The translations under genes were made by a program, and so were the position numbers. From a virus, in the IMG/VR virus record IMGVR_UViG_3300046007_008377, positions 5,009 to 69,008 of that record: a DNA stretch of 64,000 nt; one strand, 5' to 3'. Each line of letters begins with the position of its first letter. Position 1 is the first letter of the stretch. Of the stretch, positions 25,769 to 42,199 are shown one piece after another. A model generated the notes under the pieces. The model did not search any database. It was not told the origin of the DNA and worked only from the letters and a program-made list of their open reading frames with translations.

Positions 25769-25771
25769 GAT

Positions 25772-25990: not shown

Positions 25991-25992
25991 AG

Positions 25993-27237: not shown

Positions 27238-27267
27238 TTTTAGTTTGATTTTAAATTTTTATTAGCG

Positions 27268-27275
27268 CAAAGATA
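27268..27275 (-). promoter_or_regulatory. -7 box (TATCTTTG) for recombination operon
   Basis: TAnnTTTG 30 nt upstream of the 27237 start. Confidence 0.6.
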
Positions 27276-27289
27276 AAAATACTTTCTGA

Positions 27290-27470
27290 TAATCGGACAA
27301 TAATTGTATTATTTTTTATTGAAAATTGTATTTTATAACTCGGAGTAGAATATTTCTTACATTTATAAAGTTACTTAAAACATTGAATTGTTAGTGTTTA
27401 CAATACAATCGGAATAGGATTATGCTTTTTAAAATAAAATTGTATCATAATTGTATTATTTAATCAAAAT
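27290..27470. other. Candidate attP (repeated AATTGTAT arm-like sites)
   Basis: Four AATTGTAT copies in two clusters flanking a non-coding core, between divergent promoters near the integrase. Confidence 0.35.
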
Positions 27471-27477
27471 TGTTTTT

Positions 27478-27485
27478 TACATTTG
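27478..27485 (+). promoter_or_regulatory. -7 box (TACATTTG)
   Basis: TAnnTTTG upstream of 27520. Confidence 0.6.
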
Positions 27486-27519
27486 CGCCAATCATTAATA
27501 ACAATTAAAATTTAAAAAC

Positions 27520-28035
27520 ATGAAAAAAATTATTATTGCGCTATTCGTAGCAACAAGTTCATTTGCTCAAACAACAACGCCTTTTGTAATTGAGCATTGC
27601 GTTGATAGAATGACTGACAGAGAGTATTATTTCACTAGGAAAAAATTGATTTGCGCCAACGAGACCAAGACAAAGGGATTCACTATAACTCCAGATTTTA
27701 GAGCTGACGGAAATTCGTTTATTAATAGCGGATTTACTTGTAAAAACGTAAACATAGGTAATTGTGATGAAAATGACGATCTTATCATATTGTTTGATGA
27801 TAATAGTAAAATCTCACTTACTTCTTGGAACAAATTTAATTGTGAAGGTAATGCGTATTTCAATTTTTCAGATGAAGATTTGGCTCAATTGTCAACTAAA
27901 AAGGTAAGCTCAATTAGGTTTACAAACGGCAGAACATACGAAAGTCTTACGGTTAAATTAAAGATTGAGCAAAAAGATTATTTTATTAAAGCATACACCA
28001 TGCAAAAAGTTGTAGAGATTGACTGCTCAAAATAA
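27520..28035 (+). CDS. Secreted/periplasmic hypothetical protein (moron-like)
   Basis: Signal peptide MKKIIIALFVATSSFAQ with Bacteroidota-typical A-Q cleavage. Confidence 0.65.
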   Translation: MKKIIIALFVATSSFAQTTTPFVIEHCVDRMTDREYYFTRKKLICANETKTKGFTITPDFRADGNSFINSGFTCKNVNIGNCDENDDLIILFDDNSKISLTSWNKFNCEGNAYFNFSDEDLAQLSTKKVSSIRFTNGRTYESLTVKLKIEQKDYFIKAYTMQKVVEIDCSK

Positions 28036-28040
28036 ATATA

Positions 28041-28811
28041 ATGCGAAACAAAAATATGATTGAGCCACAAAATATGCAATGCGCGCAAACGAATGTTATG
28101 CAGCGGTGTGGGTTGTTTGAAGGAAACGCTATGGATTTGCTTTTTGATTTAGAAGATCATAGCGTAGATTTGACAATATTAGATCCCGATTATCAAGATT
28201 GGGATAAACTTTGCGAAGAAGGATTAATTTGCGAAGCTGTAAGAGTTACTAAATTGACTGGAAATATTATTTGTTTTACAAAACAGCCATTTGATTTTAA
28301 TTTAAGAAACGAAGTAAACCATATTTTTAGACGCGAAATAATTTGGACTTTTTCAAACGGTGGAGCTTGGGTAAGTAAAAAAATGCCTTTAGTATCATTC
28401 CAAAAAATATTCTGGTTAACATTATCAAAAGAATTTTATATCGACGTTAGAACAGGATTAGATTACAACGAAAATACAAAAGATATGAAAAGATTAAGTA
28501 AGGTTTTTGGCGATTGGAAAGAAGAAGGAAAAGAATTTGAAAAATCAAAAGAAGGAACTTGGATAAGGGATCACTACCATTTTAATAAACCGCATACAGG
28601 TAAAATACCATCAAAACCGAAGGATTTAATCAAAATATTAATTAAATGCTTTTGCCCTGAAAATGGAGTTGTTTTAGATCCCTTTTTTGGCAGCGGAATA
28701 GTTGGCGATGTGTGCAATAAATTAAATAGAAATTTTATTGCGTTTGAAATTGACGAACAAAGGGTAAAAATGTTCAATGATAAGCAAAGTGCTAATACTT
28801 TCTGCTTATGA
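28041..28811 (+). CDS. N4/N6 DNA methyltransferase, beta class
   Basis: VDLTILDPDY (motif IV variant), PSKP, VLDPFFGSG (motif I), FIAFEID. True start may be a few codons downstream. Confidence 0.85.
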   Translation: MRNKNMIEPQNMQCAQTNVMQRCGLFEGNAMDLLFDLEDHSVDLTILDPDYQDWDKLCEEGLICEAVRVTKLTGNIICFTKQPFDFNLRNEVNHIFRREIIWTFSNGGAWVSKKMPLVSFQKIFWLTLSKEFYIDVRTGLDYNENTKDMKRLSKVFGDWKEEGKEFEKSKEGTWIRDHYHFNKPHTGKIPSKPKDLIKILIKCFCPENGVVLDPFFGSGIVGDVCNKLNRNFIAFEIDEQRVKMFNDKQSANTFCL

Positions 28812-30058
28812 ATATAGTTTTCAATTTGCAAACCGGAAAAAAAAGTAATCAACTGATGATTCGGCTTTATAAAAATAAATTTGACGTTAGTTGTGGTATT
28901 GGAATTGGCCTAGATTTTTGCGACTGGAACCAACAATTACAATCGTCAAATTCGCCAATTATCAACCAAAAGCTATCTGAACTAAAGTCAAACGTTTTAA
29001 AGGCCTACAACGAGAGTTTTATCCAAGGAACAATAATAGATAAGCAATTTGTAAAAAACATCATTTGCGAGTGCTTCAATCGTCCTACAAAGGAAATATC
29101 ACAAGTTAATTCAGATGTATTTATTTATTATTCTGATTTCGCTAATAATTGGCTCAACACGAAAGCGGATCAATGGAAAATTTCGGCCAAACAAACCATG
29201 CCTAAGTATTTGAAAAAGCAATACGAGGACTTTTTAGATTTGTTTTTGGATTACGAGAAAATGCTTGATTCTAAATTAGTATTGAAGGATTTGTGTATTG
29301 ACGATTTTTACAATTTTGCCAATTACCTGGAGGACGAAGGCTACAACCCAAGCACTATAAAAAGAATGCTGTCTAGAATGAAGTTTTTTTGCGCCAGGTG
29401 TAGCGAAGAAGGAATAAAAGTTTCTTCAGCATTTACGCAGCGAGTTTTTGTAGATGATGATAGCGGCGATATTGAAGGCGTTTACTTAAACGAGGAAGAA
29501 ATCGATAGAATTTTCAATTTAGATTTAGATCACGATTTTGTTCTTGATAATATTCGGGACAATTTTTTGATTAGCTGCTGGTCTGGATTAAGAATTTCTG
29601 ACTTCTTATACAATCTAAAAACCGACAATATAAAAGACGGATTCATTTCAATTAAGACACAAAAAACTAAGTCTTTTGTCAAGTTGCCTATTCATGCTCA
29701 CATAAAATTTGTTTTAGACAAACGCTTTGGCCAATTGCCAAAAAAAATGTCAGCTACCGAGTACAATAAGCAATTAAAGGTAGTTTGCCAATTAGCCGGA
29801 ATAGACAATTTAGTTTACGGAAAAGTCTGGAATCCAATAACCAAAAGAAAAGAACGTAAATACTTGCCAAAACATGCTTTTTGCACCTCACACATAGGCA
29901 GAAAGTCTCTGTGTACTAACCTAGCGGGTAAAGTTCCAAAAGAATTAATTCAAAACATATTTGGTTGGGCCGATTCTAAAATGATAGATTACTACAATCA
30001 AACTACAAAAACCGATTACGCAGAAAAGCTACAAGAATATTGGAACGCTAAAAAATAA
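28808..30058 (+). CDS. int: Tyrosine integrase
   Basis: GLRISD, KTQKT, SHIGRKS, FGW, DYY catalytic set; N-terminal arm-binding and SAM-like regions of Bacteroidota integrases. Confidence 0.9.
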   Translation: MNIVFNLQTGKKSNQLMIRLYKNKFDVSCGIGIGLDFCDWNQQLQSSNSPIINQKLSELKSNVLKAYNESFIQGTIIDKQFVKNIICECFNRPTKEISQVNSDVFIYYSDFANNWLNTKADQWKISAKQTMPKYLKKQYEDFLDLFLDYEKMLDSKLVLKDLCIDDFYNFANYLEDEGYNPSTIKRMLSRMKFFCARCSEEGIKVSSAFTQRVFVDDDSGDIEGVYLNEEEIDRIFNLDLDHDFVLDNIRDNFLISCWSGLRISDFLYNLKTDNIKDGFISIKTQKTKSFVKLPIHAHIKFVLDKRFGQLPKKMSATEYNKQLKVVCQLAGIDNLVYGKVWNPITKRKERKYLPKHAFCTSHIGRKSLCTNLAGKVPKELIQNIFGWADSKMIDYYNQTTKTDYAEKLQEYWNAKK

Positions 30059-30065
30059 AAACAAA

Positions 30066-30096
30066 AAAAAACCTTGACTGACAATCAAGGTTTTTT
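30066..30096. terminator. Bidirectional intrinsic terminator
   Basis: AAAAAACCTTGA-ctgacaa-TCAAGGTTTTTT between convergent genes. Confidence 0.75.
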
Positions 30097-30112
30097 ATTA
30101 GGTTCTGTTTTG

Positions 30113-30472
30113 CTAATTATGGTTGTACTGAATCGAATCTATAAGCGCTGTTGCAGTAATATTCTTTTTACTATCTAAGTTGTACTGAAACATACTTTGG
30201 TGCGTTGTGTACGTAGGAAATCCTAATACGTCTACTCCGGTTTGAAAAGTGCAACTTGTTGTTTCAAATCTTTCTGTCAAGTTTTTTGTTTGAATTACTT
30301 TAAGTTCTAAGTCTTTTACTAATTTGTAAAGTTGTTCTTCTTTGCCGATCCATTGACTTTTAAGGAATAGTTTGCCGCCAGGGGTTATCTTTGGCTTGTC
30401 AGAATTTTGAAACTCAATACATTTAATATACCTATTAAGTAATTCTTCTAATTTTGGAATTGATTTTTTCAT
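30113..30472 (-). CDS. Hypothetical protein (early cluster)
   Basis: 119 aa ORF in tightly packed minus-strand run. Confidence 0.6.
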   Translation of the reverse strand: MKKSIPKLEELLNRYIKCIEFQNSDKPKITPGGKLFLKSQWIGKEEQLYKLVKDLELKVIQTKNLTERFETTSCTFQTGVDVLGFPTYTTHQSMFQYNLDSKKNITATALIDSIQYNHN

Positions 30473-30477
30473 AAAAT

Positions 30478-30729
30478 TTAAAGTGTAGATTCGCTAATTA
30501 ACTCCTTAAGAACTTCAAGCTGATAGCCGCCAATATTTGAAGGAATTACCTTTGTGTTATTGTAAACGTTCAAAGCATTCGTGATCAATTCCCTGGACTG
30601 TCTTTTAATCAAAAGAGGTTGATGTATCTTATTATTCAAATGCGGTTTGTTAGGATTGATTTTTCCTAAATTTTGGTAAACTTTTGTCTGTTCAATTACA
30701 GATGATGCAATAAGGTCGTTTGAGCTCAT
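30478..30729 (-). CDS. Hypothetical protein
   Basis: 83 aa ORF, operon packing. Confidence 0.55.
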   Translation of the reverse strand: MSSNDLIASSVIEQTKVYQNLGKINPNKPHLNNKIHQPLLIKRQSRELITNALNVYNNTKVIPSNIGGYQLEVLKELISESTL

Positions 30730-30735
30730 TTTGTT

Positions 30736-31047
30736 TTAAGTTACTTGGGTTTTCAAATATTCAATTTGTTTGCTTAAAATTTCAAAAAACAAATTTCTTT
30801 TTCCTTTGTGTGTGTCAAGGTTTTTTGCAAAAACATCTTTTTCAATAAGCAGTATTACTTTTTTGTCTATTTCTATAGTCGCGTACTTCTCAAATCTGCC
30901 AATTACTCCGGCGTCAAGACATACAACGTCACCAAAAATACTATTTCTTTTAAGAATAGTAAAAACATTTCTCTCAAATCTTTTGGATCCGCGCTCGTTA
31001 TCAACATCGCAGATCCGGTTGGTTACAATTATTTTCATAAGATACAA
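30736..31047 (-). CDS. Hypothetical protein
   Basis: About 100 aa ORF, operon packing. Confidence 0.55.
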   Translation of the reverse strand: MYLMKIIVTNRICDVDNERGSKRFERNVFTILKRNSIFGDVVCLDAGVIGRFEKYATIEIDKKVILLIEKDVFAKNLDTHKGKRNLFFEILSKQIEYLKTQVT

Positions 31048-31114
31048 TATAAAATTATTACAGCAATAATAAACAAAAATCTAAATATTACTTCTTTTTT
31101 TTCACTTGATATTT

Positions 31115-31294
31115 TCATTCTTCGATTAATTTTTTAAGACTACTTTTTTGATTAGTTGAAATTTCTACAATTGGCAAATTAAAAGCCGGATCGTGTACAC
31201 AAGATAAGTTTGTATAATTTGGTAATTCACGAATTGAGGCAATCCATTTCATCTGAATTGCCTGGTTGTGTTTGTCTATTACTTTTTTCATCAT
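31115..31294 (-). CDS. Hypothetical protein (59 aa, below cutoff)
   Basis: MMKKVIDKHNQAIQMKW..., ATGA-coupled to the 31291 gene. Confidence 0.5.
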   Translation of the reverse strand: MMKKVIDKHNQAIQMKWIASIRELPNYTNLSCVHDPAFNLPIVEISTNQKSSLKKLIEE

Positions 31295-31569
31295 TGCATT
31301 CCTAAGATTTTTTTAATTGACTTAATTTCTTCAGGAAAGAACTGCGAACTTTTTGTATTAATTACGTAATTCATTCTAGAAGTGGTAATATAGCATTTTG
31401 AAGCTAGTTCGTGCAGCTCTAATCCCAAGTAAGACAATTCGTCTCGGATCCGTTCTCTAAATTCAACATGATCAAAGCCAATAATACTTTCGTGAATTTC
31501 AAATTGCTCTACTAAAACCTTATTGATTTTAGATTGATAGTATCTGTATTGTGTTTTGTTAGCGGCCAT
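31291..31569 (-). CDS. Putative Cro/XRE-like HTH regulator
   Basis: LGLELHELASKCYITTSRMNYVIN...EEIKSIKKILG. Confidence 0.5.
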   Translation of the reverse strand: MAANKTQYRYYQSKINKVLVEQFEIHESIIGFDHVEFRERIRDELSYLGLELHELASKCYITTSRMNYVINTKSSQFFPEEIKSIKKILGMQ

Positions 31570-31732
31570 TTTCGAAGTTCTTAAGAAATTTGAGTGTTCC
31601 TAAAATAAACATTGACAATCCGCCAATTGGAACCAGGAGAAACCAACGATCCCAATTCCAATACTCAGCAGCTAAAAAGCCGCAAAACAAAAATGTAAGT
31701 CCAGCGGACATTAAAATTAGACTATTTTTCAT
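31559..31732 (-). CDS. Small two-TM membrane protein (57 aa)
   Basis: MKNSLILMSAGLTFLFCGFLAAEYWNWDRWFLLVPIGGLSMFILGTLKF..., read by hand. Confidence 0.55.
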   Translation of the reverse strand: MKNSLILMSAGLTFLFCGFLAAEYWNWDRWFLLVPIGGLSMFILGTLKFLKNFENGR

Positions 31733-31734
31733 AA

Positions 31735-32103
31735 TTATTGATTTTGTTGATTATACCATTTAATAAACTCTACTACTGCTTTATATGTTGCTTGTAGTTT
31801 AGTATCCTCTAGTTCGGAATAATAATTTTTTGAGCTAGTTTCTATGTAGCATACGTTTTCTCGTATCTCTACTATAACTTTTAAACTCTCAATCTTCTCA
31901 ACCACTTCCATTAACCAATTCCAATCGGAATGAAATTTCATTTCTATTGGCGTTATCAATACGTTTTTCTCTTTATTAAAACACTCCCAATTTTGAATAT
32001 ACTCTTTATTGTCTATGTAAACTTTTGTAACTCCGTTATTTTTAAGATGGTTTTCAAACCCCATAAACTCGGCTATCAATTTGTTGTTTTCTGTTGTGTT
32101 CAT
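31735..32103 (-). CDS. Hypothetical phage protein
   Basis: NKLIAEFMG...FHSDWNWLMEVVEKIE...YKAVVEFIKWYN. Confidence 0.7.
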   Translation of the reverse strand: MNTTENNKLIAEFMGFENHLKNNGVTKVYIDNKEYIQNWECFNKEKNVLITPIEMKFHSDWNWLMEVVEKIESLKVIVEIRENVCYIETSSKNYYSELEDTKLQATYKAVVEFIKWYNQQNQ

Positions 32104-32109
32104 TTTTAT

Positions 32110-32394
32110 TTAGTTTTTAAGTTCAAAAATTAAGTTGTCTATTTTCGAGTGAGAATTTATATAATCCTGGATTGTTTTGTCGGTGTTTTTAAAACGATAA
32201 TTAAATGATTTTTTTACTTCATTACCCTTGTTTTTAAACGTTGACTTGCTTTTTTCGGTAATTGGACTTTTAATAAGACTTAGCTTAATATACTTATCGA
32301 AAAAGTCTTTTTTTGCGTGGCTGCATTCAGCTACTTTTTTATTGTTAATAGTCCAAAAACCGTCTACAATTTTAATCTCTATTTGATTCTTCAT
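32110..32394 (-). CDS. Hypothetical protein
   Basis: 94 aa ORF. Confidence 0.55.
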   Translation of the reverse strand: MKNQIEIKIVDGFWTINNKKVAECSHAKKDFFDKYIKLSLIKSPITEKSKSTFKNKGNEVKKSFNYRFKNTDKTIQDYINSHSKIDNLIFELKN

Positions 32395-32401
32395 GGTTAC
32401 T

Positions 32402-32605
32402 TTATTTTAAGTGAGTAATTTGTTCTGTTTTCCGTAAATTGTAAGGAATTGCGTCAAGCTCGTAATCGATTGTAAAACCTATTTTTTCTAGATCGTTTTT
32501 TAGATCCTCACAAGCAATATAATCAAATTCATCTAAGATATATAAGTCAAGCACTTTGCTTACTTCTTGCGGTATTTTTTCGGGTGTTTTGAATAGGTCT
32601 TTCAT
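32402..32605 (-). CDS. Hypothetical protein
   Basis: 67 aa, DLF...GFTIDYELDAIPYNL. Confidence 0.65.
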   Translation of the reverse strand: MKDLFKTPEKIPQEVSKVLDLYILDEFDYIACEDLKNDLEKIGFTIDYELDAIPYNLRKTEQITHLK

Positions 32606-33072
32606 GATGTTGGTTTTTTAAATTTTTTAATTGCTAATGACGAAAACAATCCGACAAAAATTTGCCCTTTTAAACGATCGGATATTTTATTGCCGTTGCA
32701 GTCTACTTCGTACCAAAAACCATATCCGTCTCCGTCTCCGTCGTATCTTAATAAAGCGCCTTTATTAGTTTTGTAAGTATGAGCTGTAAATTGGTTTTTT
32801 GTATGTGTGTTTTCCATAAACGACGGCGTAAATATGACTTTTTCGCCTTTTTCATTATATTGATAGTTGGTAACAACAAATATTCCATTACGGTCGCTAT
32901 AATCTAATTTACCTAGTTTTTTCAGGTGTTTTTTAGCATATTGCATTGCTTTTTTTTCGTCTTCTGTTCTGTAGAGAAATTGTGCTAAATTGTATTTAGA
33001 AACGCTATAACAACCTTTGTAAATTTCTTGTACTGAAAATTCGTGTTTGCCGTGCATAATTGTATTTTTCAT
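32602..33072 (-). CDS. Hypothetical protein
   Basis: 156 aa, ATGA-coupled. Confidence 0.6.
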   Translation of the reverse strand: MKNTIMHGKHEFSVQEIYKGCYSVSKYNLAQFLYRTEDEKKAMQYAKKHLKKLGKLDYSDRNGIFVVTNYQYNEKGEKVIFTPSFMENTHTKNQFTAHTYKTNKGALLRYDGDGDGYGFWYEVDCNGNKISDRLKGQIFVGLFSSLAIKKFKKPTS

Positions 33073-33084
33073 TTTTTTATATTT

Positions 33085-33252
33085 TTAAATTAAACTATTT
33101 GAAGCAATAATCCTGACTTCATACAATCCGTTACAATAAACCTGGACGTTATTGTATTTTTCGTAAAGTCTGTGTCTTTTTTCTTGCGCCTTTCTAATTT
33201 CCGTTTCGGTCTCGTATGGCATTGTGTAAACGATTTCTTTTTTGGTTTTCAT
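33085..33252 (-). CDS. Hypothetical protein (55 aa)
   Basis: Likely start MKTKKEIVY at 33252 rather than the track's 33357. Confidence 0.55.
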   Translation of the reverse strand: MKTKKEIVYTMPYETETEIRKAQEKRHRLYEKYNNVQVYCNGLYEVRIIASNSLI

Positions 33253-33274
33253 GATGTTAATTTTTAAAATTGAT

Positions 33275-33430
33275 TTAAATTTTGTTTTTGTAAGGCGCGT
33301 CATTATAAGATTGATAATTGCAATTTTTGCAAAGGTCCTGATCGTTGTCCACGTCAAAATCCATTTCTTTTTTTGGGAAATGTTCGTGACAACAATTACA
33401 CATAAACTTAGGTTCGTTATTTTTTTTCAT
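33275..33430 (-). CDS. Small zinc-finger-like protein (51 aa)
   Basis: MKKNNEPKFMCNCCHEHF...DLCKNCNY: two CxxC pairs; read by hand. Confidence 0.6.
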   Translation of the reverse strand: MKKNNEPKFMCNCCHEHFPKKEMDFDVDNDQDLCKNCNYQSYNDAPYKNKI

Positions 33431-33433
33431 TTC

Positions 33434-33544
33434 TTAAGAATTATAGATTAAATAATTAGCTACGATATAAATTAAGAACGTGTATAAATACAACATTCCA
33501 ATACTTGCGTTTCTTTTACTGTTGTTAAATTCAGAATTTTTCAT
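33434..33544 (-). CDS. Small membrane peptide (36 aa)
   Basis: MKNSEFNNSKRNASIGMLYLYTFLIYIVANYLIYNS; fills operon gap. Confidence 0.4.
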   Translation of the reverse strand: MKNSEFNNSKRNASIGMLYLYTFLIYIVANYLIYNS

Positions 33545-33548
33545 TTTT

Positions 33549-33773
33549 CTATTCATTAAATAGGATCGCGTCCCGGTTAGCATTTAATTTAATAGTTTCA
33601 AAATCTGACTTCTCACAAGCAATAAAAAATAAATTGACCTTTGTATTGTCTAAACAATAACTTTGCTTAATTGCAGCCAAAAAATCGTTTTTAGTTTGCG
33701 TTTCATTAGTAACCAGGTGCGCAAAGTTGCGCACTTGGTCTTGGAATAGAAAATTTAGGTTTGTCTGTTTCAT
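33549..33773 (-). CDS. Hypothetical protein
   Basis: 74 aa ORF. Confidence 0.6.
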   Translation of the reverse strand: MKQTNLNFLFQDQVRNFAHLVTNETQTKNDFLAAIKQSYCLDNTKVNLFFIACEKSDFETIKLNANRDAILFNE

Positions 33774-33789
33774 TTTTTTAGTTTTAAAA

Positions 33790-34446
33790 TTAAAATTTAT
33801 TTCCTTCTTCTGTAAATTCGTATTCGTTGGATTCTATTTCATCTGAGATATATTCATCGGAGTACATATAATCTTCTTCCTTTTGTAAAGTCGATCGCAT
33901 TGCGTCAAAACACTCGTTTAATAGGTCCTCAAAATTTGTGCTACCAAAAGTTCTTAATTCTAAAAAATCGTAAATTGGCCCCATAATATCATCATCATAG
34001 CACATTCCGGTTAAATTGCAATTCTTTGCAACCTTGCAAATATTTGAGTAATAAGCAGAATAAAATAAACCTTTGTTTGGTCCGTTTTTTATTTCCGTTT
34101 GTTTTCGCATTCGGTGAAAAGGTTTTAAGTCTTTTGAGTTAACGCCTGATTTTAAGTATTTTCTTTTGTACAAAGTATCTCCGAAATTGTTTAAAATATA
34201 CTTTCTTAATCTCAAACCGGTTAATTGTAAAATATCATCATCGATATTTGAAGTATTACAATCTAACCAGGACCTGAACCCGCTTTTTACGTCAAATGCA
34301 GCACAAAACGCCTTAACAGTACTTTCCGCGTCGCTGTAAATAAAATCGAAAGTTAAATTATTGTTTCTGTAGTTTTCGATTGCAATTTCTTGAGCTTTTT
34401 TACTAAGTTCCTCAAATTTGTAGATTTTTGTTCTTATTGTTCTCAT
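33790..34446 (-). CDS. Hypothetical early phage protein
   Basis: 218 aa; YKFEELSKKAQEIAIE...NEYEFTEEG. Confidence 0.7.
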   Translation of the reverse strand: MRTIRTKIYKFEELSKKAQEIAIENYRNNNLTFDFIYSDAESTVKAFCAAFDVKSGFRSWLDCNTSNIDDDILQLTGLRLRKYILNNFGDTLYKRKYLKSGVNSKDLKPFHRMRKQTEIKNGPNKGLFYSAYYSNICKVAKNCNLTGMCYDDDIMGPIYDFLELRTFGSTNFEDLLNECFDAMRSTLQKEEDYMYSDEYISDEIESNEYEFTEEGNKF

Positions 34447-34509
34447 GGTTTTTCCGTCTTTTTAATCTGAAGCGGCTAACAGCTTTTAAATAGATTTTAT
34501 TTTTAGTAA

Positions 34510-34743
34510 TTAATTAAATGGTTTTATATCGTCTCTATTTCCTTCTTCCGGAAAACATTTGTAGACTATTTTTGGTAAATTGTAGTTTTTATTTTGTTCG
34601 TTTATTACCGGAATAAATTCGCATTGATAAACAAATGAATTAAAACCTTGGTTTTTTAATTTTGATCCGTTAAAAATTAACGGTACTTTTTTATCTGAAA
34701 TATCGATATATTTTTGGCCTTGAATTAGTTGTGAATGCTGCAT
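34510..34743 (-). CDS. Hypothetical protein
   Basis: 77 aa ORF. Confidence 0.55.
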   Translation of the reverse strand: MQHSQLIQGQKYIDISDKKVPLIFNGSKLKNQGFNSFVYQCEFIPVINEQNKNYNLPKIVYKCFPEEGNRDDIKPFN

Positions 34744-34768
34744 AATTAAATTTGAATTAAAATAGATT

Positions 34769-35119
34769 TTATTTATTAAAAAATTGTTTTGTTAGTCCGT
34801 TTGTTGATCCTTGAAAAGTTGCAATTACTTTTGTTGGATTGCTTACCTCTAAAAAAATATCGTTGCTATTGTTAATTATTACTTCATAATAACCGCGTTT
34901 AACCAGGTGCAAACTTTTTTGAGTTGATCCGCTACATTGATAAATAGTATCTCCGGCGCTTTTGCTTTTGTCAATTAAAATTAAATTTCCAGGACCTTGA
35001 AAAATTAAGGTACATTTTTCGGTCGGGTAAAGTTCGGGCGCCTGAATAGTTTCTTTAATTTCGGGCGCCGTGCAGCTTGTTAAAATTGCTAAAGTCGGGA
35101 GTAAAAAATATTTTTTCAT
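34769..35119 (-). CDS. Lipoprotein
   Basis: MKKYFLLPTLAILTSC lipobox. Confidence 0.7.
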   Translation of the reverse strand: MKKYFLLPTLAILTSCTAPEIKETIQAPELYPTEKCTLIFQGPGNLILIDKSKSAGDTIYQCSGSTQKSLHLVKRGYYEVIINNSNDIFLEVSNPTKVIATFQGSTNGLTKQFFNK

Positions 35120-35203
35120 GATTGTATTAAGATTGAAATAATTAAGATTAAAAAAGTTGATAGGGTAAATTTTATTTTTGCGTTGGTTCCTGGATCCGTT
35201 TTT

Positions 35204-35734
35204 TTACTTTTCATTTTCCCAAATTTGAAGAACGTTTTTAACGTATTGATTTTTTAGCTCTAATGCCTTCTTAAAATCAATTTTAAGTAGCTTTTTACCG
35301 TCGAAATAATGAATTTTATATAAGTGATCGTTTCCGTAATTTTTCGCGTAGTATTCTACTTCTAAAACGCTATCTTTTAAGATTCTTTCACGTGCGGCCG
35401 TTCCGAATAAATAAGGCACCGTTTCGCCTTTTTTTGGAAAGTGTGTTAGGTCCGTTCTGAAAAGTGATAAACTTGTACCGGTTGACCTTGCAATGTGTAT
35501 AAATTTTGCGCCTGGATTTTCCTCGATGCTTTTTTTATCGTGTTGAAAATCGGTTGCGTAATGCTTCACGAAATTTTTTGTTTTGTCGTGTAGCTGCTCG
35601 AAAATACTTTTTTCGGCCGGTATTAATTTTGCCGTTGTAATTCCGTCAATAGTTACAAAAATTTGTTTTTTAGGTTCAACAAATTTCGAGTAATCGATTT
35701 TTTTTGCTGCTGGAAATTGGATTGCGTTTTTCAT
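35204..35734 (-). CDS. Hypothetical early protein
   Basis: 176 aa ORF. Confidence 0.65.
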   Translation of the reverse strand: MKNAIQFPAAKKIDYSKFVEPKKQIFVTIDGITTAKLIPAEKSIFEQLHDKTKNFVKHYATDFQHDKKSIEENPGAKFIHIARSTGTSLSLFRTDLTHFPKKGETVPYLFGTAARERILKDSVLEVEYYAKNYGNDHLYKIHYFDGKKLLKIDFKKALELKNQYVKNVLQIWENEK

Positions 35735-35835
35735 GATTTTTATAAGATTTAGATTTAAAATAATTGAAATTTGTTAATTGAAAAAATGACCTACTAACGT
35801 CAAGCGCGTTCGGTCGTTTTAAAGATGTTTTTGAA

Positions 35836-36237
35836 TTAACCTACTATATTAACTTTGCCGTTTGAATAGTAATATTGAAAGGCGTTATTGTCTCCGCAGC
35901 AATTGTATAAAGGCACATAAAAAGAATTATGATAATTTCCTGCATCATAAACGCCTGCAAGCTCAAAACCAGTAAAATTTTGCAAAATATTTTCCTCTCT
36001 ATAGCCAAAAGGATTATTTTTTCTTTCGGATCCTGAAGGAGTTTTCCAAAGATTTTTCAAAAAATCAATTCCCTTTTTATTTTGTTCCGGCGTTAAGGTT
36101 GCCGGATTGTCCCAAATTTCGGATAAATCAATTTTTTCTTTAGCGTTTAACCTTCTGCAAATAAGGTTAATTTGCTGCTCTGTAGCAATACCGGAAAGAA
36201 CTATTTCCGAAATTATTTTTTCACTTGAATTTTTCAT
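35836..36237 (-). CDS. Hypothetical early protein
   Basis: 133 aa ORF. Confidence 0.65.
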   Translation of the reverse strand: MKNSSEKIISEIVLSGIATEQQINLICRRLNAKEKIDLSEIWDNPATLTPEQNKKGIDFLKNLWKTPSGSERKNNPFGYREENILQNFTGFELAGVYDAGNYHNSFYVPLYNCCGDNNAFQYYYSNGKVNIVG

Positions 36238-36241
36238 GATG

Positions 36242-36514
36242 TTAAGAATTTAAAAGGTTTAAAATATCGTTTTCTGTTTCTTGAATGTTGTAAGACTGAA
36301 AGACAATCCCGCCGCCGTATTGTTTGTTATGAAATTTGCGGCCGCCAATTTTACGCGCTCTATTTAACGCGGTGTTATAACGATCTGAAATTTTAGCGCT
36401 AGTATTGAAATAATTTTCTGAATCTTTCAATAAGTTTGAAAAGTGGCAAACATAACGCGGGTTTCCGTTTACGTCGTTGTTTACTCTAGTAAATGAAATT
36501 TTTGTAGTTTCCAT
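36242..36514 (-). CDS. Hypothetical early protein
   Basis: 90 aa; NDVNGNPRYVCHF...YGGGIVFQSYN. Confidence 0.7.
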   Translation of the reverse strand: METTKISFTRVNNDVNGNPRYVCHFSNLLKDSENYFNTSAKISDRYNTALNRARKIGGRKFHNKQYGGGIVFQSYNIQETENDILNLLNS

Positions 36515-36519
36515 GATGA

Positions 36520-36648
36520 TTAAATAATAAAGTTGATAATATTTGTAAATTCGCTAATAATAATAAGAAGGCCACAAGCGGAAAACGCCGTAATAAATAA
36601 CAATATTTTGCCCTGTGTTTGTTCCGGTAATAAATTAAATTTTTTCAT
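36520..36648 (-). CDS. Small single-TM protein (42 aa)
   Basis: MKKFNLLPEQTQGKILLFITAFSACGLLIIISEFTNIINFII. Confidence 0.5.
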   Translation of the reverse strand: MKKFNLLPEQTQGKILLFITAFSACGLLIIISEFTNIINFII

Positions 36649-36652
36649 GGTT

Positions 36653-36814
36653 CTAATTTTTAAAGGTTGTAATAAAAACACTAACAAAGGCCGCCAGGAG
36701 TAACGATAAAAGAACGTAATTAAATAGCGTTTTAGTTGTCATGCAAAACATAAGCGCCACGACTATAAAACTACAAACGGCCAAAAGGAAATAAAGAATA
36801 AATTTTGATTTCAT
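36653..36814 (-). CDS. Small two-TM protein (53 aa), first gene of early operon
   Basis: MKSKFILYFLLAVCSFIVVALMFCMTTKTLFNYVLLSLLLAAFVSVFITTFKN. Confidence 0.55.
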   Translation of the reverse strand: MKSKFILYFLLAVCSFIVVALMFCMTTKTLFNYVLLSLLLAAFVSVFITTFKN

Positions 36815-36846
36815 AATTTTAAATTTTTATTGTTTTAATTCTGAAA

Positions 36847-36854
36847 CAAACGTA
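36847..36854 (-). promoter_or_regulatory. -7 box (TACGTTTG) driving early operon
   Basis: TAnnTTTG 32 nt upstream of 36814. Confidence 0.6.
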
Positions 36855-37829
36855 CAACAGCACCACAAACGAAACTAATAAAATCGTTAATCTACATAAA
36901 AAGTCGATGAAATACATCATTGACAAAGTAAAATCCTACAAAAATATAGTGTTGAATAGTGTAAAAGTATCGATAAATAAAGGACTTTTGAAGGTTGCCG
37001 CCTGGAATAGTGTAAATTTGCCAATTAAAGGAAAGCAGCAGACACAAAACAAAGGACCAAAACACAATCCAACAACACCGGGGAACCTGAAGACACAAAA
37101 ACCACGTTTTAAACGATCGTAAACATTAACAGACCGAAATATATATTTTAATGCGTTATTGTTGTTTAATTGTTTTTATATGCAACCTGGAAATATAGAA
37201 ATATATTAATTTATTATAGGATCCGTTTAAATATCTGAAATTTGCCAATAGTCAGAGCGCACCAAGGAACACCCCAAAACAAACACACAACACCATACAA
37301 CAACAATAAAAAAAAATAGCGCGTTTCCTTCACGGTTTTAAATTTCGTGATTGTCGAGTATTTTATGAAAGGTTAATTTAATTTTGTGGAGTTTTGTGCA
37401 ACCTGGAAAGGCGCAACGCTTTAAAAATCAATAATTTGCGCGAGTTTTAAACGGGATCAATAAATTTAGTTATCGGAGTAAACAACAAAGATAATTTATA
37501 ATTGATTGAAAGCTAGTAAGTTAGTGTTTTAATATACAATCGTATTAAGATTATAAATGTGAGATGAAGCAGCAGCAACCGAACATAAAAACGGCGTAAG
37601 TTTATACATAAAGGCCTGGATATCAAGTATAAAAAGGCAAAACATTTACAAAATATAATCCAAAAGAAAGGCCCCCGCCATCAAAAAAACCGTTTCCCTT
37701 TTGCCGATTGCCGCCCAGGTCCGTGGGTATAATCCCTACCTACCACATACTCTCACCACATTTAAAAAACGAACCTACAATTTCTAAAACCTCTGTAAAA
37801 CAAAGGGCTAATGCGGTATTCTATATAAA

Positions 37830-37951
37830 AGTGAACGATTTGGCTTAAAAAGGGCAAAAGTGAACGATTAGTGAACGATTTGGATATAAAAGTGAACGAT
37901 TCAATAAAAAAAAGTGAACGATTAGGTATTGTTATTTGAACGTCGTTCACT
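37830..37951. repeat. Array of AGTGAACGATT repeats (5 direct plus 1 inverted 9-mer)
   Basis: Copies start at 37830, 37859, 37870, 37891, 37913; inverted TCGTTCACT at 37943-37951. Confidence 0.9.
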
Positions 37952-37958
37952 ATATTTG
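37951..37958 (+). promoter_or_regulatory. -7 box (TATATTTG)
   Basis: Abuts repeat array, upstream of HTH gene 37987. Confidence 0.65.
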
Positions 37959-37986
37959 CATATTAGTAATTATAAATGTTTAAATA

Positions 37987-38364
37987 ATGATTGATCAGGA
38001 AAAGGATTTCAGGCATAAAAAGATTTTGGATTTACATAACCAGGGTAAGAGCATTGCGGCTATTGCTAAGGAAATGGTAATGAGTAAGGGTGGAGTTCAC
38101 AAAATACTTTCTAGTTTGATTATAAAAGGAGATTCTCCTAAAAAGGAGCCTATAGCTAAGGTTAAGTTATCTGGTCAAGAAGAAAGGTTTAGTTCGTTTG
38201 TAGGATATGAGAGAACTGATGTAAATCAATATGTACATAAGGAGACTGGTGAGATTGTAAATATAGCTTTTGTAAAGGCTAAGAAAGCTGGCGAATTTGG
38301 ATATTTTGTGAAGGTATCTAGTGTTGAAAAAAAATCGACCGCAAGCGGTAATGAAGTAATCTAG
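37987..38364 (+). CDS. HTH DNA-binding protein
   Basis: ILDLHNQGKSIAAIAKEMVMSKGGVHKIL. Confidence 0.7.
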   Translation: MIDQEKDFRHKKILDLHNQGKSIAAIAKEMVMSKGGVHKILSSLIIKGDSPKKEPIAKVKLSGQEERFSSFVGYERTDVNQYVHKETGEIVNIAFVKAKKAGEFGYFVKVSSVEKKSTASGNEVI

Positions 38365-38369
38365 AAATC

Positions 38370-38627
38370 ATGACAGAGATAAGAGATCATAAGTACGAAT
38401 TTAAAACGTACAATGGCAGAGTGAAAATTTACGTTGATGGGTATGTGATGTTTTGTTTTAATCAGATTGATTTTGCGGGATATTACGCCTATAAGGACGA
38501 TCGTAATCTCTACGGACTCGATATTTATATGAATCGAGAAAAAGCGGGACAATGCCAGATGGAGATTTATTTTAAGACTAAGGAGAATTGGATTGGAGTT
38601 CTTAAATTGCTAGACGAAAACATGTAA
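38370..38627 (+). CDS. Hypothetical protein
   Basis: 85 aa ORF. Confidence 0.6.
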   Translation: MTEIRDHKYEFKTYNGRVKIYVDGYVMFCFNQIDFAGYYAYKDDRNLYGLDIYMNREKAGQCQMEIYFKTKENWIGVLKLLDENM

Positions 38628-38636
38628 TTAATAAAT

Positions 38637-38846
38637 ATGGAAGATTCAAAACGTTGCGCGATTGAGCTTGTTGAGAAAATGCGTTTATCTAGTTTAAAGA
38701 TTACTAAAAAAGACGCTAAGGTTTGTGCTTCAATTGCGGCTCAATACATTATTAATGCAAATCCGCACAGCAATCCTCTAAATACGGAAGTACATTCTAC
38801 TATTGGATTTTGGCAAGAAGTTAAACAAGAAATAGAGAAATTATAA
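38637..38846 (+). CDS. Hypothetical phage protein
   Basis: 69 aa; AKVCASIA...FWQEVKQEIEKL. Confidence 0.65.
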   Translation: MEDSKRCAIELVEKMRLSSLKITKKDAKVCASIAAQYIINANPHSNPLNTEVHSTIGFWQEVKQEIEKL

Positions 38847-38850
38847 AATT

Positions 38851-38911
38851 GGAAAGATGGCTGAATGGTTAAAGCTGAAAGAGTGTGCAGGTTCGAGTCC
38901 TGCTCTTTCCC
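38851..38911 (+). ncRNA. tRNA-like RNA lacking an anticodon arm (pseudo-tRNA or mimic)
   Basis: Acceptor GGAAAGA/TCTTTCC, D arm GCTG-AATGGTTA-AAGC, T arm GCAGG-TTCGAGT-CCTGC; only 11 nt between D and T arms. Confidence 0.75.
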
Positions 38912-39006
38912 CTACAAGTTGATCATTGGTCAGCAACACAACTTTGATAAGTGCTTGCACACGCGAGATTTTAATTACTAGGAATTGTTAAAATAATAAA
39001 GAAATT

Positions 39007-39333
39007 ATGCCAGATATATCAATGTGTTCTAATGCACTATGCCATTCTAAAGATTATTGCTATAGATTTACAGCTACTCCTAATCCCCATAGACAAAGTT
39101 ATATGGGTTTTGGTCCTAAAGAAGGAGAAGATAAATGCGATGATTTTTGGCCAAATAATAAAGACTCTGAAAAATGTAAACTAAATGGAGTTAAACGTGA
39201 AGGTGAGATATGCAATTTAGAACAATGCAACTATCCTAAATGCACCCAAGAAAATTATTGTAAGTATTGTCATCAAACAGATGGTGTACATAAAATGGGT
39301 TGTGAAACTAGAAAAATACAAATAAACTTATGA
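39007..39333 (+). CDS. Cys-rich hypothetical protein
   Basis: MPDISMC...C...CYRF; multiple CxxC. Confidence 0.65.
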   Translation: MPDISMCSNALCHSKDYCYRFTATPNPHRQSYMGFGPKEGEDKCDDFWPNNKDSEKCKLNGVKREGEICNLEQCNYPKCTQENYCKYCHQTDGVHKMGCETRKIQINL

Positions 39334-39569
39334 AACAAACAGCAGTAGAATGGTTAATTTCTAAAATAGAGGTTAATTCAAATCCTTCACTTACACAAAA
39401 AGAAATGATTGTATACATTGAACAAGCCAAAGAAATGGAAAAGCAACAGATAATTGATGCTCAATCCTATGCAATATCAAAAGCTGATATGACAAATAAT
39501 AGAGGTTTTTTTGATTGCGAACAATACTACAACGAAACATTTAACCTTTCACAACAAGATAAACCCTAA
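39330..39569 (+). CDS. Hypothetical phage protein
   Basis: MKQTAVEWL...QAKEMEKQQIIDA...EQYYNETF. Confidence 0.7.
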   Translation: MKQTAVEWLISKIEVNSNPSLTQKEMIVYIEQAKEMEKQQIIDAQSYAISKADMTNNRGFFDCEQYYNETFNLSQQDKP

Positions 39570-39586
39570 ATTTTGGGGTTTATGTA

Positions 39587-39817
39587 ATGACAAAAAGTAA
39601 GATGACACTAAAAGAAAAGTTTGAACAATATGCAAAGGATGAAATTTGGCGAACCAGAAACTATAATGCAGAAGAATGTGAACTTATAGCAGATGAATTT
39701 GCTATTGGATTTGCAGAGTGGTATTTGAATTTATCTAAATCAGATGATTGGGAAAAATTTGATTACAACACAAATGAAAAACTACTAGAAATCTATAAAA
39801 AAGAAAAAGGATTGTGA
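39587..39817 (+). CDS. Hypothetical phage protein
   Basis: ADEFAIGFAEW...LLEIYKKEKGL. Confidence 0.65.
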   Translation: MTKSKMTLKEKFEQYAKDEIWRTRNYNAEECELIADEFAIGFAEWYLNLSKSDDWEKFDYNTNEKLLEIYKKEKGL

Positions 39818-40173
39818 TTTACTTTAAATATTCAACAAGGCTTGTAATATTATTTGATAATATAGTTATCAAAATACCTATAAGCAGAAGAGGTTATCTA
39901 CAAGGAATCAATGAGAAATACGTTTGGGATAAGTATAAAGATATTGATTTATTAGCGGAACTAAAATGGGTATTTATAGGTGTAGTATGTCAAAAGAGAT
40001 ATGATGCTGTTAAATCAATACCAAATGTAGTTGTAAGACGTATTAAATCAAAAGTTCCTGAATTTGATTTTGATAACTGCGATTTACATAACAGTAAAAA
40101 CTGGGGAATAGAAAATAAAGAATACATCTTACTTGACTATGGTATCAACAAACACATTGCAAGTTTATATTAA
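39814..40173 (+). CDS. Miniature protein-kinase-like protein
   Basis: VIKIP, E of a helix-C-like segment, DLHNSKNWG, LLDYG in 119 aa; GTG start. Confidence 0.5.
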   Translation: MIYFKYSTRLVILFDNIVIKIPISRRGYLQGINEKYVWDKYKDIDLLAELKWVFIGVVCQKRYDAVKSIPNVVVRRIKSKVPEFDFDNCDLHNSKNWGIENKEYILLDYGINKHIASLY

Positions 40174-40232
40174 AACAAATAAACCTATAAAACGGCAGTA
40201 AATGTAAAAAAGTGCCAATAATCAGATAAAAA

Positions 40233-40586
40233 ATGAAATTTGAAACTTGGTTAGACGACAATTATCCGTACAGAAATAGAAATTACAGGAATGAAAAATT
40301 GTACGGCAAAAGCAAATATGACGAAACTTATTTATACAACGAACTATTAGAAATTTTTAAAAAAGAAATTATGATTCCATTACATTACCCGCAGCAATAC
40401 GATGTTATAGATTTTGTAAGCGACAACGGCTTAAATTTTAACGAGGGAAACGTTATTAAGTACATTACGCGCGCTAGAAAAAAAGGAACGCATTTAATTG
40501 ATTTAGAGAAGGCCTTGGATTATATCCAGCGAGAAATTAAGATTGTGAGAGAGAAAGAATTAAAATTAATAGAAAACGATCGATGA
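40233..40586 (+). CDS. DUF3310-like protein (with N-terminal extension)
   Basis: PLHY, LNFNEGNVIKYITRARKKG, DLEKALDY. Confidence 0.8.
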   Translation: MKFETWLDDNYPYRNRNYRNEKLYGKSKYDETYLYNELLEIFKKEIMIPLHYPQQYDVIDFVSDNGLNFNEGNVIKYITRARKKGTHLIDLEKALDYIQREIKIVREKELKLIENDR

Positions 40587-40870
40587 TTTCCAAAGAACAA
40601 TTTGCAAACGCAATAGAGGCTATAAGATTGCAGCAATACGAAGATAAAAAGAATAGTCAATTGCTTCAAGAAGCGTTTTCAATTAACGAATTTCCGATAT
40701 TTCAGAATGATAAATTGGTTAATACAATAATAGACTTGCTTTCTTTTTGGTTTGACAAAGAAGAATTGCAACACTATTGTTTTGATTGTGATTTTGGTAA
40801 AACTGGACCTGAATCTGAATGGGAAACACCTGAAGAATTATATAACAAACTGCTTAAAAATAAAAAATGA
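40583..40870 (+). CDS. Hypothetical protein
   Basis: 95 aa, coupled. Confidence 0.65.
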   Translation: MISKEQFANAIEAIRLQQYEDKKNSQLLQEAFSINEFPIFQNDKLVNTIIDLLSFWFDKEELQHYCFDCDFGKTGPESEWETPEELYNKLLKNKK

Positions 40871-40998
40871 CTGACCAAGAAAAATTAAATGAGCTATTGG
40901 CTAAAAGAACAAAACTTATGCTTAAAGGATCAAACGACGAAAAGTTAAACGACAAAATTCGTGAATTGCAAAAAATAATTCGAGATGCAAGAAGATAA
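40867..40998 (+). CDS. Small hypothetical protein (43 aa)
   Basis: MTDQEKLNELLAKRTKL..., ATGA-coupled. Confidence 0.5.
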   Translation: MTDQEKLNELLAKRTKLMLKGSNDEKLNDKIRELQKIIRDARR

Positions 40999-41788
40999 AA
41001 GAAAGTACAACGGCCGACGCGCAGGAACTACTAAAAACAAAATTCAAGGCGCATTTGCTGAGAAAAAAGATACTTTCGGAAGCGCTAAAGAAAAGAGAAA
41101 TAGGTTCCAAACCGAATCGATGGAAGAATTTCTTAAAATTAAACCAGGAGAAACTTTTGAGCAATGGGAAAAACGCACTTCTAAAAAAAGAATCCATGGC
41201 GTTACAAAAAAGAACAATTTGTCAATTGCCAAAAACGGAAAAATAGTCGTCGATAGAGAACGATTAACCGGAATGGCCAAAGAGAAGCAAGTTATAATTC
41301 GCCACAAATTTATAGAGCGTCCGTATGACTTTTTGGAAAATTATGCTTTTATTATGCGCTGGGCTAGTATTAGGTACAACATCTCAAAAGACGACATTGA
41401 AATTGCTTTTTTCTTTTATGGAAAAGGAATGTTTACCAAGGAAGAATTTACGCGCGTATGCGTTCAATTAGGAACCGTAAAAGGTGTTTGGACTAGATTT
41501 GTAAATAAGCCTTACATTACCGCAGCAGTTTTAGTAACCAAAGATAATGTAGTCAAAGAAATGGAATATTATCAATTAACGGCTGAATTTTCAAGATTGC
41601 TATTGGCGGTTTATGGCGGTTTGTCCAAAGTAAACAAACTAACTTTGACAATTAGATCATCTGCTCAGTACAAAAGAAACGTAGTGCATAAAGAACTAAA
41701 TGATTTTTTAGAACAACTTAATCGAGAAGTTGACCAAACAATAAAAGGAGAATTAATTCCTTATTTTGACAAGAAAAATATTGAATAA
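40985..41788 (+). CDS. Hypothetical protein
   Basis: 267 aa; basic N-terminus, possible winged-helix C-terminal half. Confidence 0.6.
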   Translation: MQEDKRKYNGRRAGTTKNKIQGAFAEKKDTFGSAKEKRNRFQTESMEEFLKIKPGETFEQWEKRTSKKRIHGVTKKNNLSIAKNGKIVVDRERLTGMAKEKQVIIRHKFIERPYDFLENYAFIMRWASIRYNISKDDIEIAFFFYGKGMFTKEEFTRVCVQLGTVKGVWTRFVNKPYITAAVLVTKDNVVKEMEYYQLTAEFSRLLLAVYGGLSKVNKLTLTIRSSAQYKRNVVHKELNDFLEQLNREVDQTIKGELIPYFDKKNIE

Positions 41789-41909
41789 CTTTTAATAATT
41801 GTAGCAGTAGCAAACTGCATAAAACGCATATTGCAATATGCAATATTGATTACAAAAAAACTGAAATTTAATTTAAATCCCGATTGCAAGGATAAGTGCT
41901 AGAATTACA

Positions 41910-42164: not shown

Positions 42165-42166
42165 AC

Positions 42167-42198: not shown

Positions 42199-42199
42199 A

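Follow-up and report, generated by a model that had tools for sequence, protein, structure and literature searches.

Analyses of restriction-site avoidance, which reportedly go back to studies by Sharp and by Rocha et al, usually treat each genome as a unit. The first-step-transfer DNA of phage T5 and the leading end of T7 lack restriction sites; lambda-like temperate phages carry accessory modules, the early-left and b-region, beside int; and in E. coli the Dcm/Vsr very-short-patch system leaves a footprint in which CCWGG is raised and CTWGG/CCWAG lowered. Avoidance of restriction-site palindromes by phages depends on the duration of exposure to the restriction system, according to Rusinov et al (2015; PMC4687349). 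In cyanobacteria, a single octamer, HIP1 (GCGATCGC), is over-represented 15- to 300-fold genome-wide and conserved between genomes; whether methylation-linked repair or selection is the cause is debated (Elhai, 2015; PMC4390886; Xu et al, 2018; PMC5861425). Here we describe a stretch of 64,000 nucleotides (the window), positions 5009-69008 of the 69,008-bp IMG/VR virus record IMGVR_UViG_3300046007_008377 (rated 100% complete), in which one phage genome combines a strongly avoiding backbone with a 10-kb module that has a codon-controlled excess of the same kind of site. A sister phage shows a weaker trend.

A segment enriched in restriction-type palindromes

The initial annotation of the window had counted 18 CCWGG, 17 CCGG and 24 GATC between positions 30113 and 37740 (the region), compared with 3, 3 and 9 in 37741-45000, and an exact recount returned the same figures. 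At the rate of the rest of the genome the region would hold 3.7, 2.1 and 9.2 of these sites, respectively (Poisson p 9e-8, 1.3e-10 and 3.4e-5), and the same pattern is seen for GGCC (11 vs 3.6), GCNGC (26 vs 9.7) and GGWCC (8 vs 1.7). Overall GC content is not raised (0.310 in the region vs 0.318). Fused forms, which had also been pointed out, are indeed frequent: GGATCC occurs five times in the region and once in the other 61 kb, with CG on at least one flank at all five sites, and CGGATC/GATCCG occurs eight times in coding sequence as against 1.0 in shuffles. As annotated, the excess is present in both coding and non-coding DNA (the part of a leader at 37099-37761 holds 4 CCWGG, 3 GATC and 2 GGCC), and it skips the gene at 31735-32103, which has none of the four site types CCWGG, CCGG, GATC and GGCC.

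The limits of the enrichment differ from those first given. Combining three motifs, the maximum-likelihood segment is 28155-38499, holding 73 of 180 genome sites; combining the GC-rich palindromes, it is 28690-38056, holding 95 of 248. On the right the edge, at ~38.0-38.5 kb, lies near the 37720 of the initial annotation, whereas the left edge falls at 28155-28833 rather than at 30113. Since the enriched stretch reaches an integrase gene and part of a methylase gene on the opposite strand, it is not simply a leftward transcription unit. The integrase gene itself carries extra sites (five GGCC, vs 2.1 in shuffles; two CCWGG; two CCGG), and its ortholog in the sister phage has no GGCC. Spacing between sites is irregular (coefficient of variation 0.71-1.30). 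GATC is spread through the segment with a mean spacing of 309 bp (coefficient of variation 0.83), not gathered within a few hundred bp as in a Dam/SeqA origin or a pac-type cluster.

As a codon control, synonymous codons were shuffled within each gene, keeping the protein and the codon usage of that gene; the other nulls were an order-2 Markov model of the region, the Poisson comparison above and mononucleotide expectation. The shuffles used a hand-made list of 20-21 minus-strand open reading frames (ORFs) forming a block of small genes; one that looks spurious (36892-37098, inside the leader) was left out of the final 20-gene set, and the codon-usage table is slightly contaminated by four plus-strand ORFs called inside the block. 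In the 20 genes the control left CCWGG at 12 vs 4.5 (z 5.1; 2.65x), CCGG at 16 vs 8.5 (z 3.6; 1.9x), GATC at 20 vs 12.3 (z 2.8; 1.6x), GGCC at 10 vs 5.0 (z 2.8; 2.0x) and GGATCC at 3 vs 0.5 (z 4.1). The observation is therefore confirmed, and a smaller excess persists once codon usage and composition are controlled for: the chance level of the initial annotation came from a poor, mononucleotide null, and codon control cuts the excess to 1.6-2.7x.

The suspicion that GATC is depleted elsewhere was well founded. In shuffles of the backbone genes GATC stands at 0.51x of expectation (z -6.9) and CCGG at 0.49x (z -3.1), with CCWGG at 0.95x. This loss of GATC and CCGG is usual restriction-site avoidance. 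Since the excess in the block and the depletion in the backbone are each about 2-fold, the observed contrast is the product of both, roughly half each.

The region also has a composition of its own. CpG rho is 1.49 vs 1.02, with a local peak of 1.77, and AG/CT is 0.79 vs 0.99; NCT codons are scarcer and NCC/NCG codons commoner; GC runs of 5-8 bases occur at 2-5x the expected frequency; and GC content at third codon positions (GC3) is 0.305 in block genes shared with the sister phage vs 0.223 in the backbone. Non-palindromic GC words are raised too (CGCC/GGCG 29 vs 13; GCGCC high), and neither 4-mer nor 6-mer palindromes depart significantly from the order-2 Markov model (z 0.4-1.5). Palindromes of the form SSNSS are another matter, with 70 found vs 31.8 expected under that model (z 6.0; ratio ~2.2x). 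In codon shuffles of the block they number 54 vs 31.8 (z 5.8), as against z 3.2 for non-palindromic SSNSS words, and of the ten SSWSS classes the four palindromic ones take the top four ranks, above all six non-palindromic ones. A sliding profile places palindromic SSNSS at 1.8-2.2x in 29-41 kb vs 0.3-1.4x elsewhere; non-palindromic SSNSS words stay mostly at 0.7-1.4 genome-wide and at 0.8-1.2 in the enriched stretch. In four of the 13 CCWGG sites in coding sequence, Leu is encoded by the rare codon CTG (3% of Leu codons), in the context C-CTG-G.

Three simple sources of the excess were considered and set aside. The first was a host-like composition. Of 20 samples of Bacteroidia chromosomes, the five low in GC (0.32-0.40) show CCGG at 2.5-3.5x mononucleotide expectation and S-runs at 1.5-2.2x; since such chromosomes reach this level of CCGG and G/C clustering, much of the apparent CCGG anomaly is removed. 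The CCWGG level of the module is approached by one very AT-rich sample only, and a composition like that of these 20 anonymous pieces, which may not be the host's, does not account for CpG rho, CCWGG or the SSNSS palindromes. The second was selection on RNA structure: folding energy relative to shuffles does not differ between the block (z -2.6) and small backbone genes (z -2.3). The third was a DNA or protein repeat as the source of the sites; site contexts differ, all three frames are used, and the block proteins are not convincingly paralogous, the best E-value in an all-against-all comparison being 0.004.

Relatives and the origin of the sites

Near-identity searches of a phage collection gave no relative, and two scans of genome contigs found neither a prophage nor a host. 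Scans of IMG/VR yielded one close relative, the sister phage (record G001, 72.8 kb; positions in its leader and helix-turn-helix (HTH) region are given below as those of L004), and a few more distant contigs (L003, L005-L008). Nucleotide identity to the sister phage is 66-87% genome-wide, and the order of integrase, small-gene block, leader and HTH gene is kept. Orthologs with 56-86% amino acid identity exist for nine of the 20 block genes and none for the other 11.

The compositional signature is partly shared. The sister block is also CpG-rich and AG-poor (rho 1.4-1.5), with a CpG rho of 1.32 in the module vs 1.11 in the backbone, and palindromic SSNSS words reach 1.27 of Markov expectation in the module vs 0.67 in the backbone (21 vs 13.9 in shuffles). 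In L005, a more distant phage organised in the same way, this trend recurs weakly when integrase and downstream DNA are compared with upstream DNA. The site excess itself is missing from the sister block, which has 3 CCWGG, 4 CCGG, 10 GATC and 1 GGCC in 7.6 kb. In alignments of the shared genes these sites number 5, 6, 11 and 2 in the window and 1, 1, 3 and 0 in the sister phage; one of the 24 window sites in the nine shared genes is conserved, and none of the leader sites. The dense code proposed in the initial annotation, if read as sites at fixed positions, is not supported, given this turnover. That annotation had also named absence from relatives as an outcome that would speak against it: the CpG signature and a weak SSNSS trend do recur in the sister phage, but the site excess is weak or absent in the relatives examined. 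It is not a family-wide trait, since the first 50 of 61.7 kb of Flavobacterium phage vB_FspP_elemoA_7-9A have no CCGG, no GGCC and no enriched block.

Substitutions differ between module and backbone. At third codon positions outside the block, 952 sites have GC in the window and AT in the sister phage vs 1380 with the reverse, that is, the window is AT-shifted; third positions are balanced in the block (101:97) and in the integrase gene (54:56). Differences can be clustered: in gene 33549 a patch of 15 nt holds five consecutive synonymous AT>GC differences between the window and both the sister phage and L015. L015, L016 and L017 are metagenome relatives aligned for this gene; L016 already has GC at two of these five sites, and L017 does not span the patch. 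Because the window is the outlier of this unrooted five-sequence set, the changes probably, but not certainly, ran in this direction.

Other palindromes are unevenly distributed in these phages as well. The two backbones avoid different sites, TCGA standing at 0.36 of expectation in that of the window and at 175 copies in the sister genome, which does not avoid it, and the sister phage has local clusters of GGCC (36-39 and 48-51 kb) and of GCGC/CGCG (1-3, 34-37.5 and 52.5-55.5 kb), so that patchy palindrome landscapes seem, from these sequences, to be general in this phage group. A 3046-bp metagenome contig, L018, encodes a 42%-identical homolog of gene 33549 and carries 13 CCWGG, 10 CCGG, 12 GGCC and 11 GATC, with no TCGA, GCGC, CGCG or ACGT and a CpG rho of 0.53; an intergenic repeat, ACCAGGCCACAAGGCCACAA, ahead of two genes holds part of the sites. 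Given the different CpG signature and the share of sites lying in the repeat, we judged its signature to be a different one.

Anatomy and turnover of the module

The large terminase shares 52% identity with its counterparts in Flavobacterium podophages (genus Elemovirus), with matches to Cellulophaga phages as well, and the window sequence recurs in several lake-water metagenomes, of which runs X6, X7 and X9 contain 27-47% of the words sampled from 29000-38900; the window phage is probably of a freshwater Flavobacteriia type. Its genome encodes giant virion proteins, GroEL, an HNH endonuclease, one N6/N4 DNA methylase and a tyrosine integrase. The features of the module are collected in Table 1.

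Table 1. Features of the enriched segment and its surroundings (window coordinates)
Feature	Position	Strand	Remarks
ORF, 171 aa	27520-28035	+	First gene of rightward ORF-methylase-integrase operon (27520-30058); no Pfam match
DNA methyltransferase, N6/N4 class	28041-28811	+	PF01555, E 9e-25
Enriched segment, restriction-type palindromes	28155-38056		Limits by motif: left 27778-28833, right 37078-38921
Tyrosine-type integrase	28808-30058	+	phrog_1; 70% aa identity to sister ortholog
Hairpin, 14-bp stem, T-runs on both sides	30066-30096		Between convergent integrase gene and small-gene block; terminator-like
20 tightly packed small ORFs, 53-218 aa	30113-36814	-	Core of site excess; 9 with sister orthologs
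ORF, 122 aa, zero of four site types	31735-32103	-	No sister ortholog; population contigs break at start
Leader, ~0.95 kb, probably non-coding	36815-37760		Two TGCAACCTGGAAA copies 216 bp apart
Six GTGAACGA copies, five direct and one inverted; core AGTGAACGATT	37822-37957 (copies 37831-37950)		Upstream of HTH gene
125-aa protein, weak helix-turn-helix matches	37987-38364	+	First gene of rightward unit; site excess ends here

The methylase has distant matches to MboIIA, RsrI, DpnA and N4-cytosine methylases, and its specificity cannot be read from the sequence. It is the only PF01555 gene in the window; the sister phage has two, both elsewhere, and a methylase adjoining the integrase is, on this comparison, private to the window phage. 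Neither phage has a C5-methylase gene. In the small-gene block the 10 largest ORFs have no Pfam match and three of the 20 match PHROGs of unknown function. No tRNA was found, nor any Rfam match at E 0.1 in 29500-38500.

Two parts of the leader, ~37395-37560 and 37660-37720, are common to both phages (L004 ~20080-20400), where they read GGCGCAACGC..TTAAAAATCAA.., ..AGCTAGTAAGTTAGT.. and CCCCCG..ATCAAAAAAA... An island at 37373-37443 shows no listed difference in a diverged lake variant and has flanks with many (40 of the 587 differences are listed). The GTGAACGA repeats beyond the leader are candidate operators or iterons. At the same place the sister phage has GGTGACCAA repeats (L004 ~20400-20650), beside an HTH protein 58% identical to that of the window phage; repeats and protein seem to vary together, which is the behaviour of an immunity operator set or of iterons. 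The HTH family matches of the window protein are all below Pfam cut-offs, and its relatives are 58-61% identical.

Contigs from other lake samples join or break at 27514-27538, 32099/32133, 33059/33066, 35728 and 38278-38844, all at gene borders, as cassette exchange would produce; loose ends at 32099 and 32133 are seen in X6 and X7. Many of these population joints have only 21 letters on their shorter side, which makes the junction evidence weak to moderate. One joint, 25811>27514, occurs in all four lake runs: it skips 1702 bases, including a 414-aa gene (25993-27237), has eight other letters at the joint and again a shorter flank of 21 letters. Since a contig of another sample covers 25001-30390 without a difference, the left junction is not an assembly artefact. 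Two features by which genomic islands are recognised are present, namely a dinucleotide and codon signature of its own, and edges near cassette junctions of other lake metagenomes together with an integrase inside the segment.

Elsewhere in the window, the structural region includes giant ORFs of 2718 and 1376 aa and one of 509 aa (11325-19481, 6689-10819 and 5157-6686), none of the three with a PHROG match. The size of the 2718-aa product recalls the virion-packaged proteins of N4-like and crAss-like phages. The phage GroEL (44189-45748, phrog_5725) is 79% identical to the product of a gene on a 2.7-kb contig (L021) in a Bacteroidales metagenome-assembled genome; this contig is probably a piece of phage DNA caught up in binning. 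At 43052-43855 lies a gene for a 267-aa protein of homing-endonuclease type, with NUMOD4, HNH_3 and AP2 domains, 39% identical to its sister counterpart.

Explanations weighed against known systems

The explanation that we find best, and hold with somewhat less than even confidence, is that the stretch from ~27.5/28.2 to 38.0/38.5 kb is a mosaic lysogeny or accessory module that has its own history and has not been subject to site avoidance. The module would comprise the 171-aa ORF, the N6/N4 methylase, the integrase, the ~20 small leftward genes and the leader, forming a cassette-swapping mosaic with a sequence history unlike that of the backbone of structural and replication genes. GATC and CCGG have been purged from the backbone but not from the module, and the module's G/C-clustered, CpG-rich composition, with more C/G-ending codons, by itself raises GC-rich words. 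We infer that the module, with its private methylase, may have come from, or may keep exchanging with, related phages or prophages in which the sites are protected by methylation and free of cost; the sites would then have no position-specific function. In favour of this reading stand the distinct composition, the depletion in the backbone, the chromosome-like CCGG level and G/C clustering, the integrase and part of the methylase gene inside the segment, the turnover of cassettes, the balanced third positions, the weaker trend in the sister phage, the private methylase and the left junction recovered intact from another sample.

Several points weigh against this reading. Relaxed avoidance can lift sites only up to expectation, so the residual excess of 1.6-2.7x, strongest for CCWGG and other SSNSS palindromes, stays unexplained; the palindrome preference among SSNSS words and the multi-nucleotide origin of the sites are likewise unaccounted for. 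Module CpG rho (1.48) and the SSNSS palindrome ratio (2.19) exceed those of all 20 Bacteroidia samples. Orthologs shared with the sister phage are as rich in sites as genes unique to the window. Sites in the window arise by clustered and partly non-synonymous changes, such as AAT AAT ATT TGT > AAC CGG ATC TGC, or AGA ATA AAT > CGG ATC CGA, which creates CGGATCCG; clustered changes of this type look more like a directional process than drift. Balanced third positions are found in some backbone genes too (43052-44188 and 53005-55155). There is no step in divergence at the borders of the module (amino acid identity to the sister phage is 56-86% inside and 37-88% outside), and recent import is therefore not demonstrated. 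Finally, no listed contig piece covers 37836-38327, leaving the right junction without independent confirmation; the population evidence is drawn only from stretches with listed cover. The unexplained excess, the palindrome preference and the multi-nucleotide changes keep two other explanations, positive selection and biased short-patch repair, alive.

Positive selection at the DNA level for dense, short, methylatable GC-rich palindromes is, in our view, unlikely, although it is the foremost of the alternatives. The palindromes could act as a density signal, in methylation-dependent control of lysogeny or early-left functions by adjacent or host methylases, or could promote recombination, as proposed for HIP1. 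The codon-controlled excess is strongest in palindromes, CCWGG and palindromic SSNSS words, with the palindromic SSWSS classes at the head of the ranking; yet non-palindromic GC words are up as well, 4-mer and 6-mer palindromes are unremarkable against the order-2 Markov model, and the number of different palindromes raised makes a single binding protein unlikely. The use of CTG in CCWGG, the multi-nucleotide site-building changes that include amino acid replacements (CGGATCCG), the CG flanking every GGATCC and the effect on coding and non-coding DNA alike would all be expected of selection on the DNA, but site positions are not conserved, spacing is irregular, and the Elemovirus relative has no such block. 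The adjacent private methylase might read the signal, though with a specificity that its sequence does not reveal. A stronger version, which we regard as less likely again, is that the segment is a 'methylation island' in which CCWGG, CCGG, GGCC, GCNGC and GGATCC/CGGATCCG have been actively accumulated in this lineage, even at amino acid cost. Control of the module would then lie in the density of these palindromes, as read by the adjacent methylase or by methylases and restriction enzymes of the host. The palindromes might set lysogeny epigenetically, promote the exchange of cassettes through break-induced recombination, or draw off restriction enzymes as a sacrificial sink. If true, cyanobacterial HIP would have a counterpart in phages, confined to one module.

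Biased mutation or repair in a recombination-hot module strikes us as about as improbable as such an island. Here GC-biased or methylation-linked short-patch repair of heteroduplexes formed in cassette exchange would leave AT>GC patches and favour site-bearing alleles, much as in very-short-patch repair or in Elhai's model for HIP. Clustered AT>GC patches of 10-15 nt such as that in gene 33549 are in its favour, but many patches require transversions and three-base codon changes, and the polarity of change is insecure in an unrooted alignment with the window as outlier. It would also fit third positions that are balanced in the module beside an AT-shifted backbone, although overall GC is not raised, and the recombination junctions that population contigs place inside the module. 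GGCT/AGCC is down (13 vs 21.9, z -2.6) where GGCC is up; the footprint of very-short-patch repair proper, however, is absent under codon control, with CCWGG at 14 vs 4.8 but CTWGG/CCWAG at 10 vs 10.7, and neither phage has a C5-methylase gene. The suggestion in the initial annotation that the region is under different repair or mutational pressure is partly supported, in that the module has a dinucleotide, codon and substitution-bias signature of its own.

That annotation had taken the region for first-injected DNA, which would carry methylation marks or offer decoy or loading sites to an injected protein or a host factor. The ends of the window contig (1-1014 and 67560-69008) repeat each other over ~1-1.4 kb at 97.5% identity, with an indel, so that window positions 62552-64000 are repeated contig end and the unique length is ~67.6-68 kb; the sister contig closes on itself through an exact 126-bp overlap at a different genome position. 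Because the ends overlap at different positions, both look like circular or permuted assemblies, that of the window phage put together across strain variation. Distances of 26-34 kb separate the region from the contig ends, and 19-26 kb from the large terminase gene. With these ends, with an enriched segment that runs into the oppositely transcribed integrase and methylase genes, with site positions that are not conserved, and with first-entering DNA in T5 and T7 being poor in sites rather than rich, this explanation is very improbable, even though the right edge is sharp and the adjoining HTH gene and operator-like repeats make early expression plausible.

If history alone is responsible, avoidance profiles could be used to date and delimit exchanged modules in uncultured phages, and statistics taken per genome would conceal structure of this kind. 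If selection or biased repair is at work, this would be an unusual phage that accumulates restriction or methylation sites, and a tractable system for the question of HIP1-type over-representation.

Each of the described systems resembles the module in some respects. The T5 and T7 cases and the first-injected reading both suppose that tolerance of sites along the genome depends on which DNA enters first, but the stretch here is site-rich and the overlapping contig ends define no physical end. As in the Dcm/Vsr footprint, CCWGG is the most over-represented site and raw CTWGG+CCWAG is low (7); unlike that footprint, CTWGG/CCWAG is at expectation with codon control, and the effect is limited to one module in a phage without a C5-methylase gene. 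The backbone behaves as expected of phage site avoidance, with GATC and CCGG near half of codon-shuffle expectation, and the module as if it had a different history of exposure; mere un-depletion would not take the module to 1.6-2.7x over codon control, nor SSNSS palindromes to 2.2x over the order-2 Markov model. A narrow literature search found no report of a module of the early-left/b-region type concentrating restriction-type palindromes. In other respects the likeness to those modules of lambda is close: the module lies between the integrase and a regulatory region, its small, non-essential-looking genes are transcribed towards int, and its turnover is high. Finally, compared with HIP1, many 4-6-mers are raised 2-6x in one 10-kb module, there is no single hyper-abundant palindrome, and one in 24 sites is conserved between the related genomes; as for a cognate methyltransferase, one PF01555 gene stands adjacent, its specificity unreadable. 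What the module has in common with HIP1 is that GC-rich palindromes in which GATC-type methylation sites are nested exceed expectation in coding and non-coding DNA alike.

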